Program-made: the position numbers and the translations under genes
DNA from: a virus
Virus record (IMG/VR): IMGVR_UViG_3300031834_000001
Span: 28,859-92,858 of that record
Length of the DNA stretch: 64,000 bases
Strand: one strand, 5' to 3'
The notes under the pieces: model-generated
What the model was told of the DNA's origin: nothing
Database searches by the model: none
The model's input: only the letters and a program-made list of their open reading frames with translations
In this document: piece after piece, positions 17,864 through 53,613 of the stretch
Layout of the letters: each line of letters starts with the position of its first letter
How positions within the stretch are numbered: the first letter of the stretch is position 1

Positions 17864-18065
17864 AAGGAACCTCCCCGTTCCCGCCTCAACTACCACCCAG
17901 ACCCTGAACGCTAGGAGGCCGACTCGCCGCCGTGTCCGACTCTCCATCCCCCGTCACCCTGCTTACCGGAGACTGCCTGGTGGCCAAGAGTAGGCAGAAG
18001 GAACCTCCCTTGTCCGCTCTCAACTACCAGATAGACCCTGAAAGCGAGGAAGCCCAGTCGCCGTG
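17864..18065 (+). repeat. Two imperfect ~68-bp direct repeats (17864-17934, 17998-18065), each containing the phage promoter motif, an RBS and GTG
   Basis: AAGGAACCTCCC...CTCAACTACCA...AGACCCTGAA...AGGA...TCGCCG shared; 134-bp period. Confidence 0.8.
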
Positions 18066-48414: not shown

Positions 48415-48852
48415 ATGCTCTGGACACTGCTCCCCCTGCTCGCGCAAGCCGCCGAAACAATCCCGCCGGACGGTTGGACCGATGCCAACAAGGTCATCGG
48501 CAGCATCCTGGCCCTTGGCATCGTCCAGATAGCCCTGGCCGCCGTGAAGTGGAAGGGCGGCAACGGTCATTGCAAGGCCGACTCGCTCCAACCCCTCCTC
48601 CAGGCCATCGCCGCCAGGGATGCTGCCGTCCCCTGCGACGCCGAGAACCTCCGGCCGCTCCTGCAAGCCATCGCATCGAAGGAGACCACGGCCACCATGC
48701 TGGCCCCGCTCATGGAAGCCCTCCGGCAATCCATCGACCGCCTGACCGACGGGGTGAACGAGTTTAGGCGTGACAGTGGGCAGGCCCATGAGAGACAGGA
48801 GGGCGCGTTGGAGCAGATTCGCAGGCAGACAGACAGGAGGCGGGCGGGGTGA
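48415..48852 (+). CDS. Membrane/coiled-coil lysis-region protein (holin-like)
   Basis: AGGAGG RBS; TM segment VIGSILALGIVQIALAAV; internal repeat PLLQAIA. Confidence 0.55.
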   Translation: MLWTLLPLLAQAAETIPPDGWTDANKVIGSILALGIVQIALAAVKWKGGNGHCKADSLQPLLQAIAARDAAVPCDAENLRPLLQAIASKETTATMLAPLMEALRQSIDRLTDGVNEFRRDSGQAHERQEGALEQIRRQTDRRRAG

Positions 48853-49427
48853 AGCCCCAGCTAATCCGGCCGGTCTTGGACACCTTCCCCGTCTCGGCCA
48901 CTTTCGGGCAACTCGGCCGCCACTGGGAGCCGAAAGACCCCGTGACCGGGCTCGGCAAACACCATGGAGTGGATTTCGCCTGCCCGGTAGGGACCACCGT
49001 CCGGGCCATGTCCGGCGGGCTCGTCAAGGAGGTCACGTCCACCACGTTGGGCGGACTCTACGTGGCCGTCCTGCATGGCGACGGACGCCGGGCCTCCTAC
49101 CACCACCTGAAGGCGTCCCTGGTCAAGGTGGGGGATAAGGTCACCCAGTGCCAGCCCGTGGCCACGTCCGGCAACTCAGGAACGAACACCACGGGGGAGC
49201 ATCTCCACCTGACTCTCCGGGATGCCAAGGGGGCAGCCATCGACCCCATGCCGGAGTTCGCGCCGACCCCGTTCGCCGACATCGGGCCGGAACACTGGGG
49301 CTTCACCGTGGCCAAGTGGGCGCGTGACCGGCTTGAGATGAGCGGGGTAGACGGAGAACTCCGGCCGGAGGAGCCGCTCTCGACCATCCGGCTCCTGGCG
49401 CTACTCAGGCGGGCCCTGCGCGAGTGA
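48849..49427 (+). CDS. M23 peptidase endolysin with a C-terminal SLH-like domain
   Basis: HHGVDF, YHHL, SGNSG.NTTGEHLH; FADIGPEHWG...LRPEEPLS. Confidence 0.9.
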   Translation: MKPQLIRPVLDTFPVSATFGQLGRHWEPKDPVTGLGKHHGVDFACPVGTTVRAMSGGLVKEVTSTTLGGLYVAVLHGDGRRASYHHLKASLVKVGDKVTQCQPVATSGNSGTNTTGEHLHLTLRDAKGAAIDPMPEFAPTPFADIGPEHWGFTVAKWARDRLEMSGVDGELRPEEPLSTIRLLALLRRALRE

Positions 49428-49439
49428 AGGCGGGGCGTT

Positions 49440-49468
49440 TTGCGCCGAACGTATGTTCTTGATATAAT
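49440..49468 (+). promoter_or_regulatory. SigA-type promoter with a LexA (Cheo) box in the spacer
   Basis: TTGCGC-N17-TATAAT with extended TG; CGAACGTATGTTCT at 49446-49459. Confidence 0.8.
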
Positions 49469-49500
49469 TGAGATAGCAGGCCCGGAGGGGTTCGCCAACT

Positions 49501-50670
49501 GTGGATCGCACCATAAGACTCCCGCTTTTCCCGACTCCCGAGCAAGCCGCCGCCCTCGCCGAGACAACCCGGCAGTTTACCGCCGTTTTCAACGCCGCTT
49601 GCATCTGCGGTTGGGAGAACCGGGTACATAACGCGATACGCCTCCACTACCTGGTCTACCATCCGCTCAGGGCTCAATACCCCGCCCTCGCTAGCGACCT
49701 TCACATCCAGGCAAGGGCCAGGGCCGCTCAAACCGTGAGGTCTGCCTTCGCCCTGGCCAAGAAGGGTCGCAAGGTATCGGCTCCCCGCTCCCGCTCCTGC
49801 CCGCCGCGTTATAACCTGCACACGTTCAAGCTTGACTGGGCCGCAGGGTTGGTCAGGTTGTCCTCTGTCTCCGGGCGGATGACCGTTCCGTTCCGGGTGC
49901 CCGAGTATGCTGGGCGGTACGTAGGTTGCAAGACCCGCACCGCCGACCTCGTCGAGCGGGATGGGCGTTTCTGGCTTCATGTCTCCCTAGACGTTCCCGC
50001 TCCGCAGACGACTCTGGTTAACGCCGTGGTCGGCGTGGACCTTGGGATAGCCCAATCCGCCGTCACGTCCGACGCCCGCTTCCTGGGCGAGGGGTCTTGG
50101 CGAAATACCGAAGATCGGTACTTTCGCGTGAGGCGGGCTTTGCAGAAACGAGGGACAAAGAGCGCCAAGAGGCACCTCGGCAGGCTCCGGGGGAAACAAA
50201 GCCGCTTCCGCCAGGACTGCGACCATGTCTTGAGCAAAGCGATTGTCCAGACCGCGCCGCCAGGGGCCACCATCGTCCTGGAGGACTTGACCAACATCCG
50301 GTCCCGAGTCAGGGTTCAACGTGGCCAACAGGCCAGACGCCTCCATTCCTGGAGTTTCAACCAACTTCGTCAGTTCGTCGAGTACAAAGCGGAAGAGCGG
50401 GGTTGTACGGTGGCCCTGGTCGATCCCAGGCATACCTCGCAGCGATGCTCCCGGTGCGGCCATACCGCACGGGACAACCGCCGCTCCCGCGCTCTGTTCG
50501 TCTGTCGGCAGTGCGGTTTCAGCCTCCATGCCGACCTCAATGGGGCGCGAAACATAGCCGCCAAGTACCGTGCCGGGCTCGGCATGTCCGAACCCGGCGG
50601 GCCGCCTGTCAACCGGCCTATCGTGGCGCACGGAGACATCTCCTTGCAGCCGCAAGCCGTCGCCCCTTAG
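49501..50670 (+). CDS. tnpB: TnpB (IS200/IS605-type), RuvC triad intact, no tnpA
   Basis: VGVDLG, IVLEDL, TSQRCSRCG, HADLNGARNI. Confidence 0.95.
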   Translation: MDRTIRLPLFPTPEQAAALAETTRQFTAVFNAACICGWENRVHNAIRLHYLVYHPLRAQYPALASDLHIQARARAAQTVRSAFALAKKGRKVSAPRSRSCPPRYNLHTFKLDWAAGLVRLSSVSGRMTVPFRVPEYAGRYVGCKTRTADLVERDGRFWLHVSLDVPAPQTTLVNAVVGVDLGIAQSAVTSDARFLGEGSWRNTEDRYFRVRRALQKRGTKSAKRHLGRLRGKQSRFRQDCDHVLSKAIVQTAPPGATIVLEDLTNIRSRVRVQRGQQARRLHSWSFNQLRQFVEYKAEERGCTVALVDPRHTSQRCSRCGHTARDNRRSRALFVCRQCGFSLHADLNGARNIAAKYRAGLGMSEPGGPPVNRPIVAHGDISLQPQAVAP

Positions 50671-50705
50671 GGGACGGTGGTTGACTGTAATTCGGCGTCC
50701 GCCAC
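50560..50705 (+). ncRNA. Predicted omegaRNA: scaffold over the tnpB 3' end and right end (to 50685), plus guide from 50686
   Basis: IS605-type right-end hairpin GCCGTCGCCCC-TTAG-GGGACGGT then GGTTGAC; 5' boundary approximate. Confidence 0.55.
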
Positions 50706-51030
50706 GGAAGCCAAGGGTATCGAGGTCTTTCACTACGACGATCCCGACTTGGCCGCCATCCTCCTCCGGTACCTGCTGGCCTTCACCGGCGCGACGGATA
50801 GGGGAGTTAAGCAACCCCCGCCCACCTCGGATCCGAAGGACGCCCCCTCCACCCTGGCCCACTGGCCCGTCCTCCATGACCCCGTTTGCCCGGCGGCCCT
50901 GGTGGAATGTGGCTTCGTGAGTAACGCCGGCGAGTTGGCGTTGTTGATGAGCCCGGCCTACCAGGTCCGGCTGGGGTGCGCGTTGGCCGCCGGGGTGATG
51001 GAGTTTAGCAGAGTCAACGAAGGGAGGTGA
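50686..51030 (+). pseudogene. 5'-truncated N-acetylmuramoyl-L-alanine amidase (Amidase_3)
   Basis: (H)CNSAS..AKGIEVF...PAALVECGFVSN; the N-terminal Zn-ligand half is not found upstream of tnpB. Confidence 0.8.
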
Positions 51031-51035
51031 AATAC

Positions 51036-51449
51036 ATGCCGCAAGACTTCGTCACATGGTCCTACCTCGGAACCTTCGCGGGTATGGCCGCCGCCACTTT
51101 CTGGCTCACCCAGAAGTCCAAAAACTTCATCGACGGCATCCTCGCTCGCCGGGGACTCTCCCTTGAAACCGACCTCCTAGCCTGGGCCTGGGCCGCCTTC
51201 CTAACCATCGTCGTATGGGGTCAACGTGGAGACCTCACCGTCGGTTGGAACTGGCCGCTCGCTCTGGTCAACTCCCTCTTCGTCGCCATTGTGGCCATGA
51301 GCACCCACCAAGCCGGTGCCAACGATGGGGCCGGGGCCGTCGAGTCTGCCTACTCCGGAGACGACATGGCCGACGTGACCCCCAAGCTTCGCGCCGTGGC
51401 CGCCTCCGCCGACGCCGAATTGGCCAAAGCTAAAGTTGCCGGCCAGTAG
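51036..51449 (+). CDS. Holin
   Basis: DFVTWSYLGTFAG; three hydrophobic segments; GGAGG RBS; lysis context. Confidence 0.7.
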   Translation: MPQDFVTWSYLGTFAGMAAATFWLTQKSKNFIDGILARRGLSLETDLLAWAWAAFLTIVVWGQRGDLTVGWNWPLALVNSLFVAIVAMSTHQAGANDGAGAVESAYSGDDMADVTPKLRAVAASADAELAKAKVAGQ

Positions 51450-51559
51450 TTGCAGGCCCGGTCCACGTTGTGGTATCGTCTCCACTAGGGTCACCCGCTC
51501 CACCTGACAACGTTAACCCCAACGCCGACCTCCTCTCCGGCGTGTCCCACTCCTCCCAA

Positions 51560-51592
51560 CGGCCCCCGGTCTCCTAGCGAGATCGGGGGCCG
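51560..51592 (+). terminator. Strong hairpin after the holin
   Basis: CGGCCCCCGGTCTC-ctagc-GAGATCGGGGGCCG; no U-tract. Confidence 0.5.
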
Positions 51593-51676
51593 CCTCCATG
51601 CCGGAATACTCCGCGCCATGGAACTTGCTGATCGGGCGCACAAACAAAGTGTACATTCTGTAGCGGAGGCGAAGTC

Positions 51677-52822
51677 GTGATCGTCCATCAGGCATTCCGC
51701 TATGAGCTCGACCCGAACACCGCCTCTCGCGAAGCCTTGGCGCGACACGCCGGGGCCGCCCGCTTCGCCTATAACTGGGGCCTGGACATTTGCAAGGCTT
51801 GCCTAGATGTTGAGGAGCGTCCGCCGAGTGCCATGACTCTCCACCGAATCTGGAACAGGTGGAAGCGGGATAATATACCCTGGTGGAGCGATGTCTCCAA
51901 GTGCGCCCCGCAGGAGGCTTTCCGTGATCTCGACCGCGCTTTCCAGAACTTCTGGCGGGGGAGGAAGACGGGGAAGCGTGTCGGCTTCCCTCGCTTCCAC
52001 AAGAAGGGCCGGGACGACCGCTTCCGGCTCACGCAAATTGGGCGCGTCCTCTCCCGTGCCGTGATCTTGCCCCGCCTGGGCCCCATCCGGACCAAAGAGC
52101 CGGCGGACAAGTTCCGGGGTCGAGTCCTATCCGCTACGGTATCCCGCGAGGCGGATCGTTGGTATGTGTCCTTGGCGGTGGAGCGGGAACGCCCCGACCC
52201 CGCTCCAGTTTCCGGCCCCGTCGTGGGTGTTGACCTCGGCTTGAACTGCTTCGCGGTCTTGTCGGATGGGACTCGTGTCGAGTCGCCCAAGCCCCTGGCG
52301 CGAAGCCTGCGCCGCCTTCGCCGGAGGAGTCGCGCACATAGCCGGAAGCAAAGAGACTCGGTTAATCAGGCCAAGGCAGCCATGGCTCTGGCCAGGCTCC
52401 ATCGGCGCATCCGCAACCAACGGCGGGACTTCCTCCACAAGTTGACCACGGGACTGGCGAAAACCAAGTCGGTTATCGTGGTCGAGGACTTGTCCGTAGC
52501 CGGGATGGTCCGTAACCGCCGCCTGGCCCGGAGTATCGCCGACGCCGGGTGGTCGGAGTTCCGCCGGATGCTGGCCTACAAGACCGTCTGGTATGGTTCG
52601 CAATTGGTGGTCGGCCCGCGCTTCTTCCCGTCCTCGAAGACGTGCTCGGCCTGCGGTGCGGTGAAGTCGAACCTATCCCTGGCCGAACGGACTTACCGCT
52701 GCGACTCCTGCGGTCTTGAGATGGACCGCGACTTGAACGCCGCGCTCAACCTGGCGCGGCTCGTCGCCGGGAGTTCCCCGGAGACGGTAAACGCCTGTGG
52801 AGCGGACGTAAGACCCGCCTAG
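51677..52822 (+). CDS. tnpB: TnpB (IS607-like), RuvC triad intact, no transposase
   Basis: AFRYELDPN...HAGAARFAYNWGL; VGVDLG, IVVEDL, PSSKTCSACG, DRDLNAALNL. Confidence 0.95.
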   Translation: MIVHQAFRYELDPNTASREALARHAGAARFAYNWGLDICKACLDVEERPPSAMTLHRIWNRWKRDNIPWWSDVSKCAPQEAFRDLDRAFQNFWRGRKTGKRVGFPRFHKKGRDDRFRLTQIGRVLSRAVILPRLGPIRTKEPADKFRGRVLSATVSREADRWYVSLAVERERPDPAPVSGPVVGVDLGLNCFAVLSDGTRVESPKPLARSLRRLRRRSRAHSRKQRDSVNQAKAAMALARLHRRIRNQRRDFLHKLTTGLAKTKSVIVVEDLSVAGMVRNRRLARSIADAGWSEFRRMLAYKTVWYGSQLVVGPRFFPSSKTCSACGAVKSNLSLAERTYRCDSCGLEMDRDLNAALNLARLVAGSSPETVNACGADVRPA

Positions 52823-52908
52823 CGGGCAGACCGCGACGAAGCAGGAATCCTCAAGTGGCACTTGTGCCGCGGAGGAGGAACTGGCCGCCTCCTTTACTGC
52901 TCACCCTT

Positions 52909-52944
52909 GCCCGCCCCGGCCACCCGGCTGGGGCGGGTTTCTCT
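52909..52944 (+). terminator. Intrinsic terminator downstream of the second tnpB
   Basis: GCCCGCCCCGGCC-acc-cGGCTGGGGCGGGT then TTCTCT. Confidence 0.65.
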
Positions 52945-52955
52945 ATGTACTTCCC

Positions 52956-52984
52956 TTGACGGACGTATACTCCCGGCGTATACT
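52956..52984 (+). promoter_or_regulatory. SigA-type promoter with a duplicated CGTATACT operator
   Basis: TTGACG-N17-TATACT; CGTATACT at 52964 and 52977. Confidence 0.75.
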
Positions 52985-53005
52985 TCTCCCAAGGAGGTAA
53001 TGACC

Positions 53006-53479
53006 ATGGCGAAGAAGACGATTTACGTAAGGGACGGCGACGCCGAACTGTGGGCTAAGGCCGAAGCGATGATCGGGGAGGACAGCCTGTCCGGCCTGCT
53101 GGCCACCGCGCTCCGGGCCCATCTCGAACGGGAGGGGACGAAGGCGAAAGTGGTAAACGGAATGAAGCGCATTGTCGTGGACACCTACGACGACGAAAGG
53201 CTTATCAGAAAGGCGTTCACGGGGACGTGGCTTGTGGAGGGTATGGAGACCGGGGAGGATCGCTTCGACATCGGATGGCGCTATAGCGTGGCTTCCACCC
53301 AGGGCGGCCAGATAGCCCTCTACGCCTACAAGGGCGAGACTCCCGGCGAAGAACTGGAGGCCCACCTCAACGTATACGAATCCATACAACACGCCGCTGC
53401 GTCAGAGGAGCCGGAGGACATTCTGGCCGCTGCCGCCGCCGAACTGGGCGACGACTTCGTACAGGAACTCGACATCTAG
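53006..53479 (+). CDS. Protein with an N-terminal ribbon-helix-helix-like domain
   Basis: MAKKTIYVRDGDAELWAKAEAM...SLSGLLATALRAHL; AAGGAGG RBS. Confidence 0.65.
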   Translation: MAKKTIYVRDGDAELWAKAEAMIGEDSLSGLLATALRAHLEREGTKAKVVNGMKRIVVDTYDDERLIRKAFTGTWLVEGMETGEDRFDIGWRYSVASTQGGQIALYAYKGETPGEELEAHLNVYESIQHAAASEEPEDILAAAAAELGDDFVQELDI

Positions 53480-53599: not shown

Positions 53600-53613
53600 C
53601 GAACATACATTCG
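53600..53613. promoter_or_regulatory. Second LexA-box-like site
   Basis: CGAACATACATTCG, one mismatch to CGAAC-N4-GTTCG; intergenic. Confidence 0.45.

Follow-up and report, generated by a model that had tools for sequence, protein, structure and literature searches.

Organization of the locus

The virus record IMGVR_UViG_3300031834_000001 of IMG/VR is 92,858 bp long and has direct terminal repeats; the window analysed here is the stretch of 64,000 nt that corresponds to its bases 28859-92858. At the end of a lysis cassette in this window lies a gene for TnpB, the RNA-guided nuclease of the IS200/IS605 insertion sequences (IS), and the present work concerns the element to which this gene belongs, the amidase gene that it interrupts, and a LexA-type box in its promoter. 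The genes of the locus are arranged in the order M23 peptidase, tnpB, 3' fragment of an Amidase_3 gene, holin-like membrane protein gene and second tnpB. The M23 peptidase gene (48849-49427, + strand; Pfam Peptidase_M23, E = 2.4e-22) encodes a candidate endolysin, and its stop at 49427 is separated by 73 bp from the GTG start of tnpB at 49501. The C-terminus of the M23 peptidase is conserved in homologues (P0006 ends with RALKE, the window protein with RALRE), and the stop is therefore native. The tnpB gene (49501-50670, + strand) encodes 389 aa, and the amidase fragment (50686-51030, + strand) begins 16 nt past its end.

A sequence-only reading of this stretch had described a tnpB that follows the M23 gene after 73 bp, lacks tnpA and a left end, and keeps the RuvC D/E/D residues. 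It had also placed a LexA-type box between the -35 and -10 of a TTGCGC-N17-TATAAT promoter with an extended -10, a right end at 50685, and directly beyond it an amidase gene that has lost its 5' half and resumes at C-N-S after the Zn-ligand His. All of this anatomy is borne out by the data given below.

The TnpB nuclease and its predicted guide RNA

To place the element, three viral and 80 genomic relatives of the TnpB were gathered at 40-64% identity; their sources include Chloroflexota, Deinococcus, Bacillota, Armatimonadota, Sericytochromatia and others. The window TnpB contains the OrfB_IS605 domain (PF01385, E = 3.5e-08) and the Cas12f1-like TNB domain (PF07282, E = 4.7e-25). The RuvC residues D180, E261 and D345 and the zinc-finger cysteines C316, C319, C335 and C338 (CxxC...CxxC) are invariant in the alignment with the relatives. 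Three substitutions, E77Q, P186S and R238Q, affect residues that are invariant in 39 relatives, and the last of these falls within the RFRRDCDH motif. In addition, the protein departs from the family at seven of the 111 conserved columns, the joint-highest count among the relatives.

A predicted omegaRNA scaffold with four helices (50571-50685, + strand) overlaps the 3' end of tnpB. In the consensus fold, which was derived from 31 sequences, compensatory changes occur in 29 of the 34 pairs, and the window retains all four helices; therefore, the guide-RNA scaffold looks functional. No Rfam family matched in 49300-53200. Judged from sequence, both the nuclease and the scaffold look intact, and the TnpB protein and its guide RNA are probably still made, and the nuclease is probably still active.

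The guide of a TnpB is the DNA just past the right end of its element, and the target is the transposon-adjacent motif (TAM) followed by that DNA, in other words the empty site of the element. From its place relative to the right end, the predicted 16-nt guide template is TGTAATTCGGCGTCCG (50686-50701, + strand), which comprises the first amidase codons, C-N-S-A-S. This 16-mer has no second copy in the window, hence there is no self-target in it.

Ends of the element and loss of mobility

The right end is formed by a terminal hairpin and the cleavage motif CAAGCC...GGTTGAC (50653-50685, + strand). About 40 relatives have the arrangement CAAGCC-hairpin-GT(N)GTTGAC in common, and their similarity ceases directly past GAC, which sets the right end at 50685. 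The left side of the relatives consists of a variable flank, YCAT, 10-16 nt, a GGGGAC...GGAA hairpin and a TTGCAA/TATAAT promoter; in the relatives with a solo tnpB, the promoter lies 6-7 nt before the ATG, pointing to a leaderless mRNA. In one Peptococcaceae genome, the sequence that four copies have in common starts at TTCAT, from which we infer that YCAT is the TAM of the subfamily. In two relatives, L016 and L062, a Y1 tnpA immediately precedes tnpB, so that the subfamily belongs to IS605 proper.

In the window, nothing comparable to the left-end hairpin of the relatives (YCAT plus GGGGAC...GGAA) was found in 49428-49500 or upstream, and a search of the 92.8-kb phage genome for a Y1 tnpA (PF01797) gave no match. 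The conservation of the M23 C-terminus indicates that the left junction lies within 49428-49500. For the same reason, a candidate left end inside the 3' end of the M23 gene, with CCAT at 49386 and a match of 13 in 16 nt to L016, was rejected, as the C-terminus is conserved at the protein level. A second left-end-like hairpin match, at window position 17968, was discarded because it is part of an unrelated repeated promoter region. With its left end and tnpA gone, the element is, as far as can be read from its structure, a remnant that cannot transpose.

Two of the relatives show other features of element ends. L016 (positions 960-1500), from a metagenome-assembled genome (MAG) of Bacillota, is a complete IS605 with the TAM CCAT, a left-end hairpin, a promoter with a LexA-type box, a Y1 tnpA and tnpB; its genome contains no second copy. 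The element of L003 (2830-4260) lies between two tandem copies of the leader of a prepilin-type gene, about 72 nt long and about 85% alike, each of which ends with CCAT; these copies look like a duplication tied to insertion or repair at the TAM.

The interrupted amidase gene and the predicted target

The amidase fragment covers only positions 76-172 of the 174 positions of the Pfam model, and a search of the whole phage genome found no other Amidase_3 piece. Among intact amidases, the four closest have 202-212 aa and are 64-72% identical to the fragment. They read S-[VI]-H followed by [SC]-N-[SA]; as the fragment begins with C-N-S, the break falls directly after the zinc-ligand His of the S-x-H motif (the second His position). 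The catalytic domain left in the window is thus incomplete, and its zinc-ligand His/Glu set is not whole. Meanwhile, the fragment is free of stops and, at the identities given above, has barely decayed, which suggests a recent insertion event.

A metagenome contig, L088, carries an intact amidase gene followed by a membrane protein gene, the same order as in the window. The holin-like membrane protein gene of the window (51027-51449, + strand) encodes a protein with 43% identity (E = 2e-21) to that of L088. This conserved order indicates that the fragment is native to the lysis cassette and that the insertion took place there.

If the [VI]-H of the uninterrupted gene was encoded by GTY or ATY followed by CAT, YCAT would stand directly before TGTAATTCGG, fitting the proposed TAM; the compatibility of the TAM with a His codon, as foreseen by the sequence-only reading, is thus supported by the relatives. 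The nearest intact allele whose DNA was examined, that of L088 (64% identity), reads GTC CAC and then TGC AAC GCC TCG; its TAM would be CCAC, and it mismatches both the TAM and the guide. An exact search of IMG/VR with the 16-mer found it in seven contigs, none of them with the match in an amidase or with the expected preceding codons. These seven matches lie in unrelated contexts and were rejected as chance matches. No intact amidase allele that matches the guide was found in IMG/VR, where sampling is thin and absence is weak evidence. In addition, scans of IMG/VR with the amidase fragment, an amidase alignment and an M23 alignment yielded no close relatives of the phage, and the GenBank phages matched the amidase fragment only at 34% identity or less.

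The sequence-only reading had regarded the match between the guide and the active-site codons of the amidase as a special property. However, the DNA that adjoins the right end serves as guide in every IS200/IS605 element, therefore the match shows only where the element inserted, and it would arise automatically from an IS605-family insertion at that spot. A guide that targets the active site of an endolysin is an ordinary consequence of the landing site.

A LexA-type box in the tnpB promoter

The 73-bp gap contains a candidate promoter (49440-49468, + strand) composed of TTGCGC (49440-49445), a 17-nt spacer with the TG of an extended -10 (49460-49461), and TATAAT (49463-49468). The -35 matches TTGACA at three of six positions only, which explains why a generic promoter scan missed the site. 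The spacer is filled by CGAACGTATGTTCT (49446-49459, + strand), a candidate operator of the LexA type that resembles a Cheo box. It agrees at 13 of 14 positions with CGAACRNRYGTTYC, the consensus of Bacillus LexA/DinR, which may not be that of the host. A repressor bound to this candidate operator, which overlaps the core promoter, would stand in the way of RNA polymerase. Downstream of the promoter, the Shine-Dalgarno-like motif GGAGGGG (49484-49490, + strand) precedes the GTG start by 10-12 nt, whereas the solo relatives are leaderless.

No other exact CGAAC-N4-GTTC occurs in the 64-kb window, where about 0.4 are expected by our estimate from the base composition; with one mismatch allowed, 20 sites were found and 18.5 are expected. 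A link of the box to prophage induction is unproven, as searches of the 92.8-kb phage genome gave no tyrosine integrase (PF00589) and no S24 repressor or LexA-like protein (PF00717).

Other palindromes of this kind are present in the phage. The near-palindrome CGAACATACATTCG at 53600-53613 of the window is intergenic, lies after a gene that ends at 53479, and is a possible operator of the LexA type. About 27 kb before the start of the window (G000:C1:1822-2037), a long non-coding stretch contains a tRNA-like 3' half with a CGAAC-N4-GTTC[GA] palindrome on either side. These two palindromes, at genome positions 1822 and 2024, were not counted as SOS boxes because they flank a tRNA-like core and may be arm sites for recombination. 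The phage genome has an attachment-type sequence that is tRNA-like, yet no match to PF00589 or PF00717.

LexA-type boxes in relatives of the element

In a scan of 302 kb of related loci, a near-consensus box was defined as one with at most one mismatch to CGAAC-N4-GTTCG. Of the sixteen such boxes found, five precede a tnpB start by no more than 50 nt, where by our own arithmetic about 0.1 should occur, and another lies at the tnpA promoter of L016. At least three other lineages of the TnpB subfamily have LexA-type boxes in their core promoters. One MAG of Sericytochromatia has two tnpB copies (L030:1487-1500 and L043:1487-1500), in which the near-perfect palindromes CGAATATATGTTCG and CGAACATATGTTCG abut the ATG and cover the -10 and the start; the lexA gene of the same MAG has CGAACATGTGTTCT fused to its -10. 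In the Roseiflexaceae/Chloroflexales loci L025, L065 and L026, the box overlaps the -35, and degenerate versions are present in L021, L037 and L052. In the Bacillota IS605 L016, CGAACGTGCGTTTG is followed after 3 nt by TATACT before tnpA, the same geometry as that of the window, where the box is followed after 3 nt by TATAAT; from the box through the -10, the two are identical at 17 of 27 positions. Moreover, the lexA genes of three box-carrying genomes have the same type of box upstream.

This enrichment, together with the placement near starts in the relatives, suggests that the box of the window is unlikely to be due to chance and that such boxes are a recurring property of the subfamily. 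DNA-damage control of tnpB, if it operates here, most likely came with the transposon and did not evolve in the phage. The sequence-only reading had stated that it would be refuted if promoter and box were part of multi-copy IS elements of the host. The findings count partly against it in this respect, since the promoters of related IS copies in bacterial genomes have LexA-type boxes, including that of the full tnpA-tnpB element of L016, which shares the promoter layout and is single-copy.

Full-text literature searches found no description of LexA control of IS200/IS605 or TnpB. The recurrent LexA-type operators suggest that DNA damage turns on these RNA-guided nucleases, at a time when the cell offers single-stranded DNA and recombinational repair. 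The SOS-box promoters of the TnpB subfamily are a lead that can be generalised, with a bearing on the timing of excision, re-insertion and homing.

Origin and possible role of the remnant

We consider it probable that the locus holds a recent and immobilised IS605 remnant that lacks its left end, lies in an amidase gene, probably remains active, and carries a LexA-type operator derived from the transposon. An element of the IS200/IS605 family would have inserted into the Amidase_3 endolysin gene of the phage, 3' of a YCAT coinciding with the His codon of S-x-H. This element may have been a derivative with tnpB alone, or it may have had both tnpA and tnpB and lost tnpA later. A subsequent deletion or recombination would have taken out the left end along with the amidase 5' half, leaving the promoter, tnpB, the guide-RNA scaffold and the right end directly after the M23 lysin gene. 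Every IS605 TnpB cuts its own empty site. Accompanied by its guide RNA, the TnpB of the window would cut any DNA in which YCAT stands before TGTAATTCGGCGTCCG, which means the amidase allele in its uninterrupted form; in a co-infecting relative the cleavage would cause gene conversion or exclusion.

Several points weigh against this history. No close relative of the phage or of the exact element was found, and neither the order of events nor the origin of the promoter can be reconstructed. An intact frame and RNA fold in an immobile element could also mean that the phage selects for them. The LexA of the host may have a different specificity. Furthermore, the promoter of the window differs in position from the leaderless promoters of the solo relatives, as it is followed by a 26-nt leader with a Shine-Dalgarno-like motif, and this leader shows a vague similarity to the tnpA-tnpB junction of L016 as well as to the sequence before the L088 amidase.

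One alternative is that the phage keeps the immobile TnpB and its guide RNA as a damage-inducible, free-standing nuclease for homing or exclusion, directed against the intact amidase gene of co-infecting or co-resident relatives, while the M23 lysin takes over lysis. This would account for a frame, catalytic residues and RNA scaffold that are intact despite the lost left end and tnpA, and it agrees with the lack of a self-target in the window, the fit of the TAM to an intact S-[VI]-H allele with CAT, and the alternative lysin gene directly upstream. A 2026 review (PMC13565253) lists "transposon non-restorative homing" against co-infecting phages among the possible activities of TnpB. However, our searches found no related phage with the arrangement, no guide-matching amidase allele was found in IMG/VR, and the L088 allele differs in both TAM (CCAC) and guide. 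E77Q, P186S and R238Q, with the joint-highest number of departures, fit a relaxed constraint at least as well as adaptation. In addition, the IS seems to be the source of the LexA box, and TnpB-like genes are present in 451 GenBank phage records, so that carriage alone is ordinary. We therefore regard such a role as rather unlikely on present evidence.

The sequence-only reading had gone further and called the nuclease phage-domesticated. The searches revealed no related phage with the arrangement and no matching intact amidase, and the protein shows no sign of extra constraint; domestication by the phage is possible but unshown. That reading thus holds in part: the intact nuclease and scaffold, the fit of the TAM and the placement of the operator are supported, and the special guide match and the domestication are not.

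Another possibility, which we likewise find doubtful, is that the promoter with the LexA box and the leader is the phage's own, for example an old promoter between M23 and amidase, and was fused to tnpB by the deletion, SOS control being accidental. The leader with its Shine-Dalgarno-like motif, which sets the window tnpB apart from the solo relatives, would then be explained, and the GGAGGGG at 10 nt from the start resembles the GGAAGGG at 11 nt from the ATG of the intact L088 amidase. The other palindromes of the phage genome (genome 1822 and 2024; window 53600) could also be taken in its favour. On the other hand, the IS605 promoter of L016 has the same geometry of box, 3 nt and TATAxT with 17 of 27 positions identical, and other lineages of the family also have LexA-type boxes. 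No intergenic promoter precedes the amidase gene of L088, and those palindromes of the phage that flank the tRNA-like attachment core may be recombination sites.

That the remnant is dead, with a chance palindrome as box and a nuclease or RNA that no longer functions, is very improbable: the expectation of about 0.4 exact boxes per 64 kb, the 20 one-mismatch sites against 18.5 expected, the change of three family-invariant residues and the weak -35 would allow it, but the box exactly fills the spacer of the sole promoter-like site in the 73-bp gap, matches the wider 14-nt consensus at 13 positions and has counterparts in the promoters of relatives, and the catalytic triad, the zinc finger and the four RNA helices are intact.

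Comparison with known systems

The remnant resembles the IS200/IS605 elements with TnpB and omegaRNA, such as ISDra2 and IS608, in its domain set, the RuvC D-E-D, the scaffold over the 3' end of tnpB and the flank-derived guide. Its relatives also have the TAM beside a left-end hairpin, and some of them a Y1 TnpA. In contrast to these elements, the remnant lacks the left end and tnpA, so that neither excision nor insertion should be possible. Its TAM would be YCAT, not TTGAT or TTAC, and its promoter carries a candidate LexA-type operator, a feature that we did not find described for IS200/IS605 in the searchable literature. For TnpB of IS200/IS605, a "peel-and-paste" model of retention has been put forward (Meers et al. 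2023, as summarised in PMC13565253).

Damage-repressor sites within the promoters of mobile elements are known from other families. LexA represses the transposase of Tn5 (Kuan and Tessman 1991), and DdrO controls IS5 and Tn3 transposases in Deinococcus (PMC8533742). The present case is alike in the position of the site and differs in the element family, as the gene under the predicted operator encodes an RNA-guided nuclease and not a DDE transposase. Immobile TnpB relatives that are kept with a guide RNA are also represented by the domesticated, nuclease-dead TldR proteins; in TldRs, however, the RuvC catalytic residues are gone and the proteins serve as repressors, whereas the TnpB of the window keeps D-E-D.

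The free-standing homing endonucleases of phages (T4 SegF, SegB and Mob, with localized marker exclusion) offer another parallel: a nuclease gene stands amid conserved phage genes, the target is the allele that lacks the insertion, and conversion or exclusion is expected. Here, recognition would be RNA-guided rather than protein-based, and neither a target allele nor spread was observed. For the proposed non-restorative homing between co-infecting phages, of which examples are lacking, an immobile but apparently intact TnpB of a phage offers a natural candidate. The fuller claim, that a LexA-controlled and transposition-dead TnpB is kept as a homing or exclusion nuclease and that SOS control is a selected, so far undescribed trait of a TnpB subfamily of IS605, seems to us a long shot. 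If it were true, upon DNA damage or induction the TnpB would cut the conserved zinc-site codons in the intact amidase genes of competing relatives, which would be converted to the M23/tnpB cassette or eliminated, and SOS control would time the guided cleavage to the period of induced recombinational repair.

A second tnpB gene

At 51677-52822, 230 bp past the holin-like gene, lies a second tnpB, which differs in type from the first (HTH_OrfB_IS605, OrfB_IS605 and TNB domains). A search for close viral relatives of this gene found none, and its ends are undefined. The whole phage genome contains exactly two tnpB genes, and both stand at the end of the lysis cassette.

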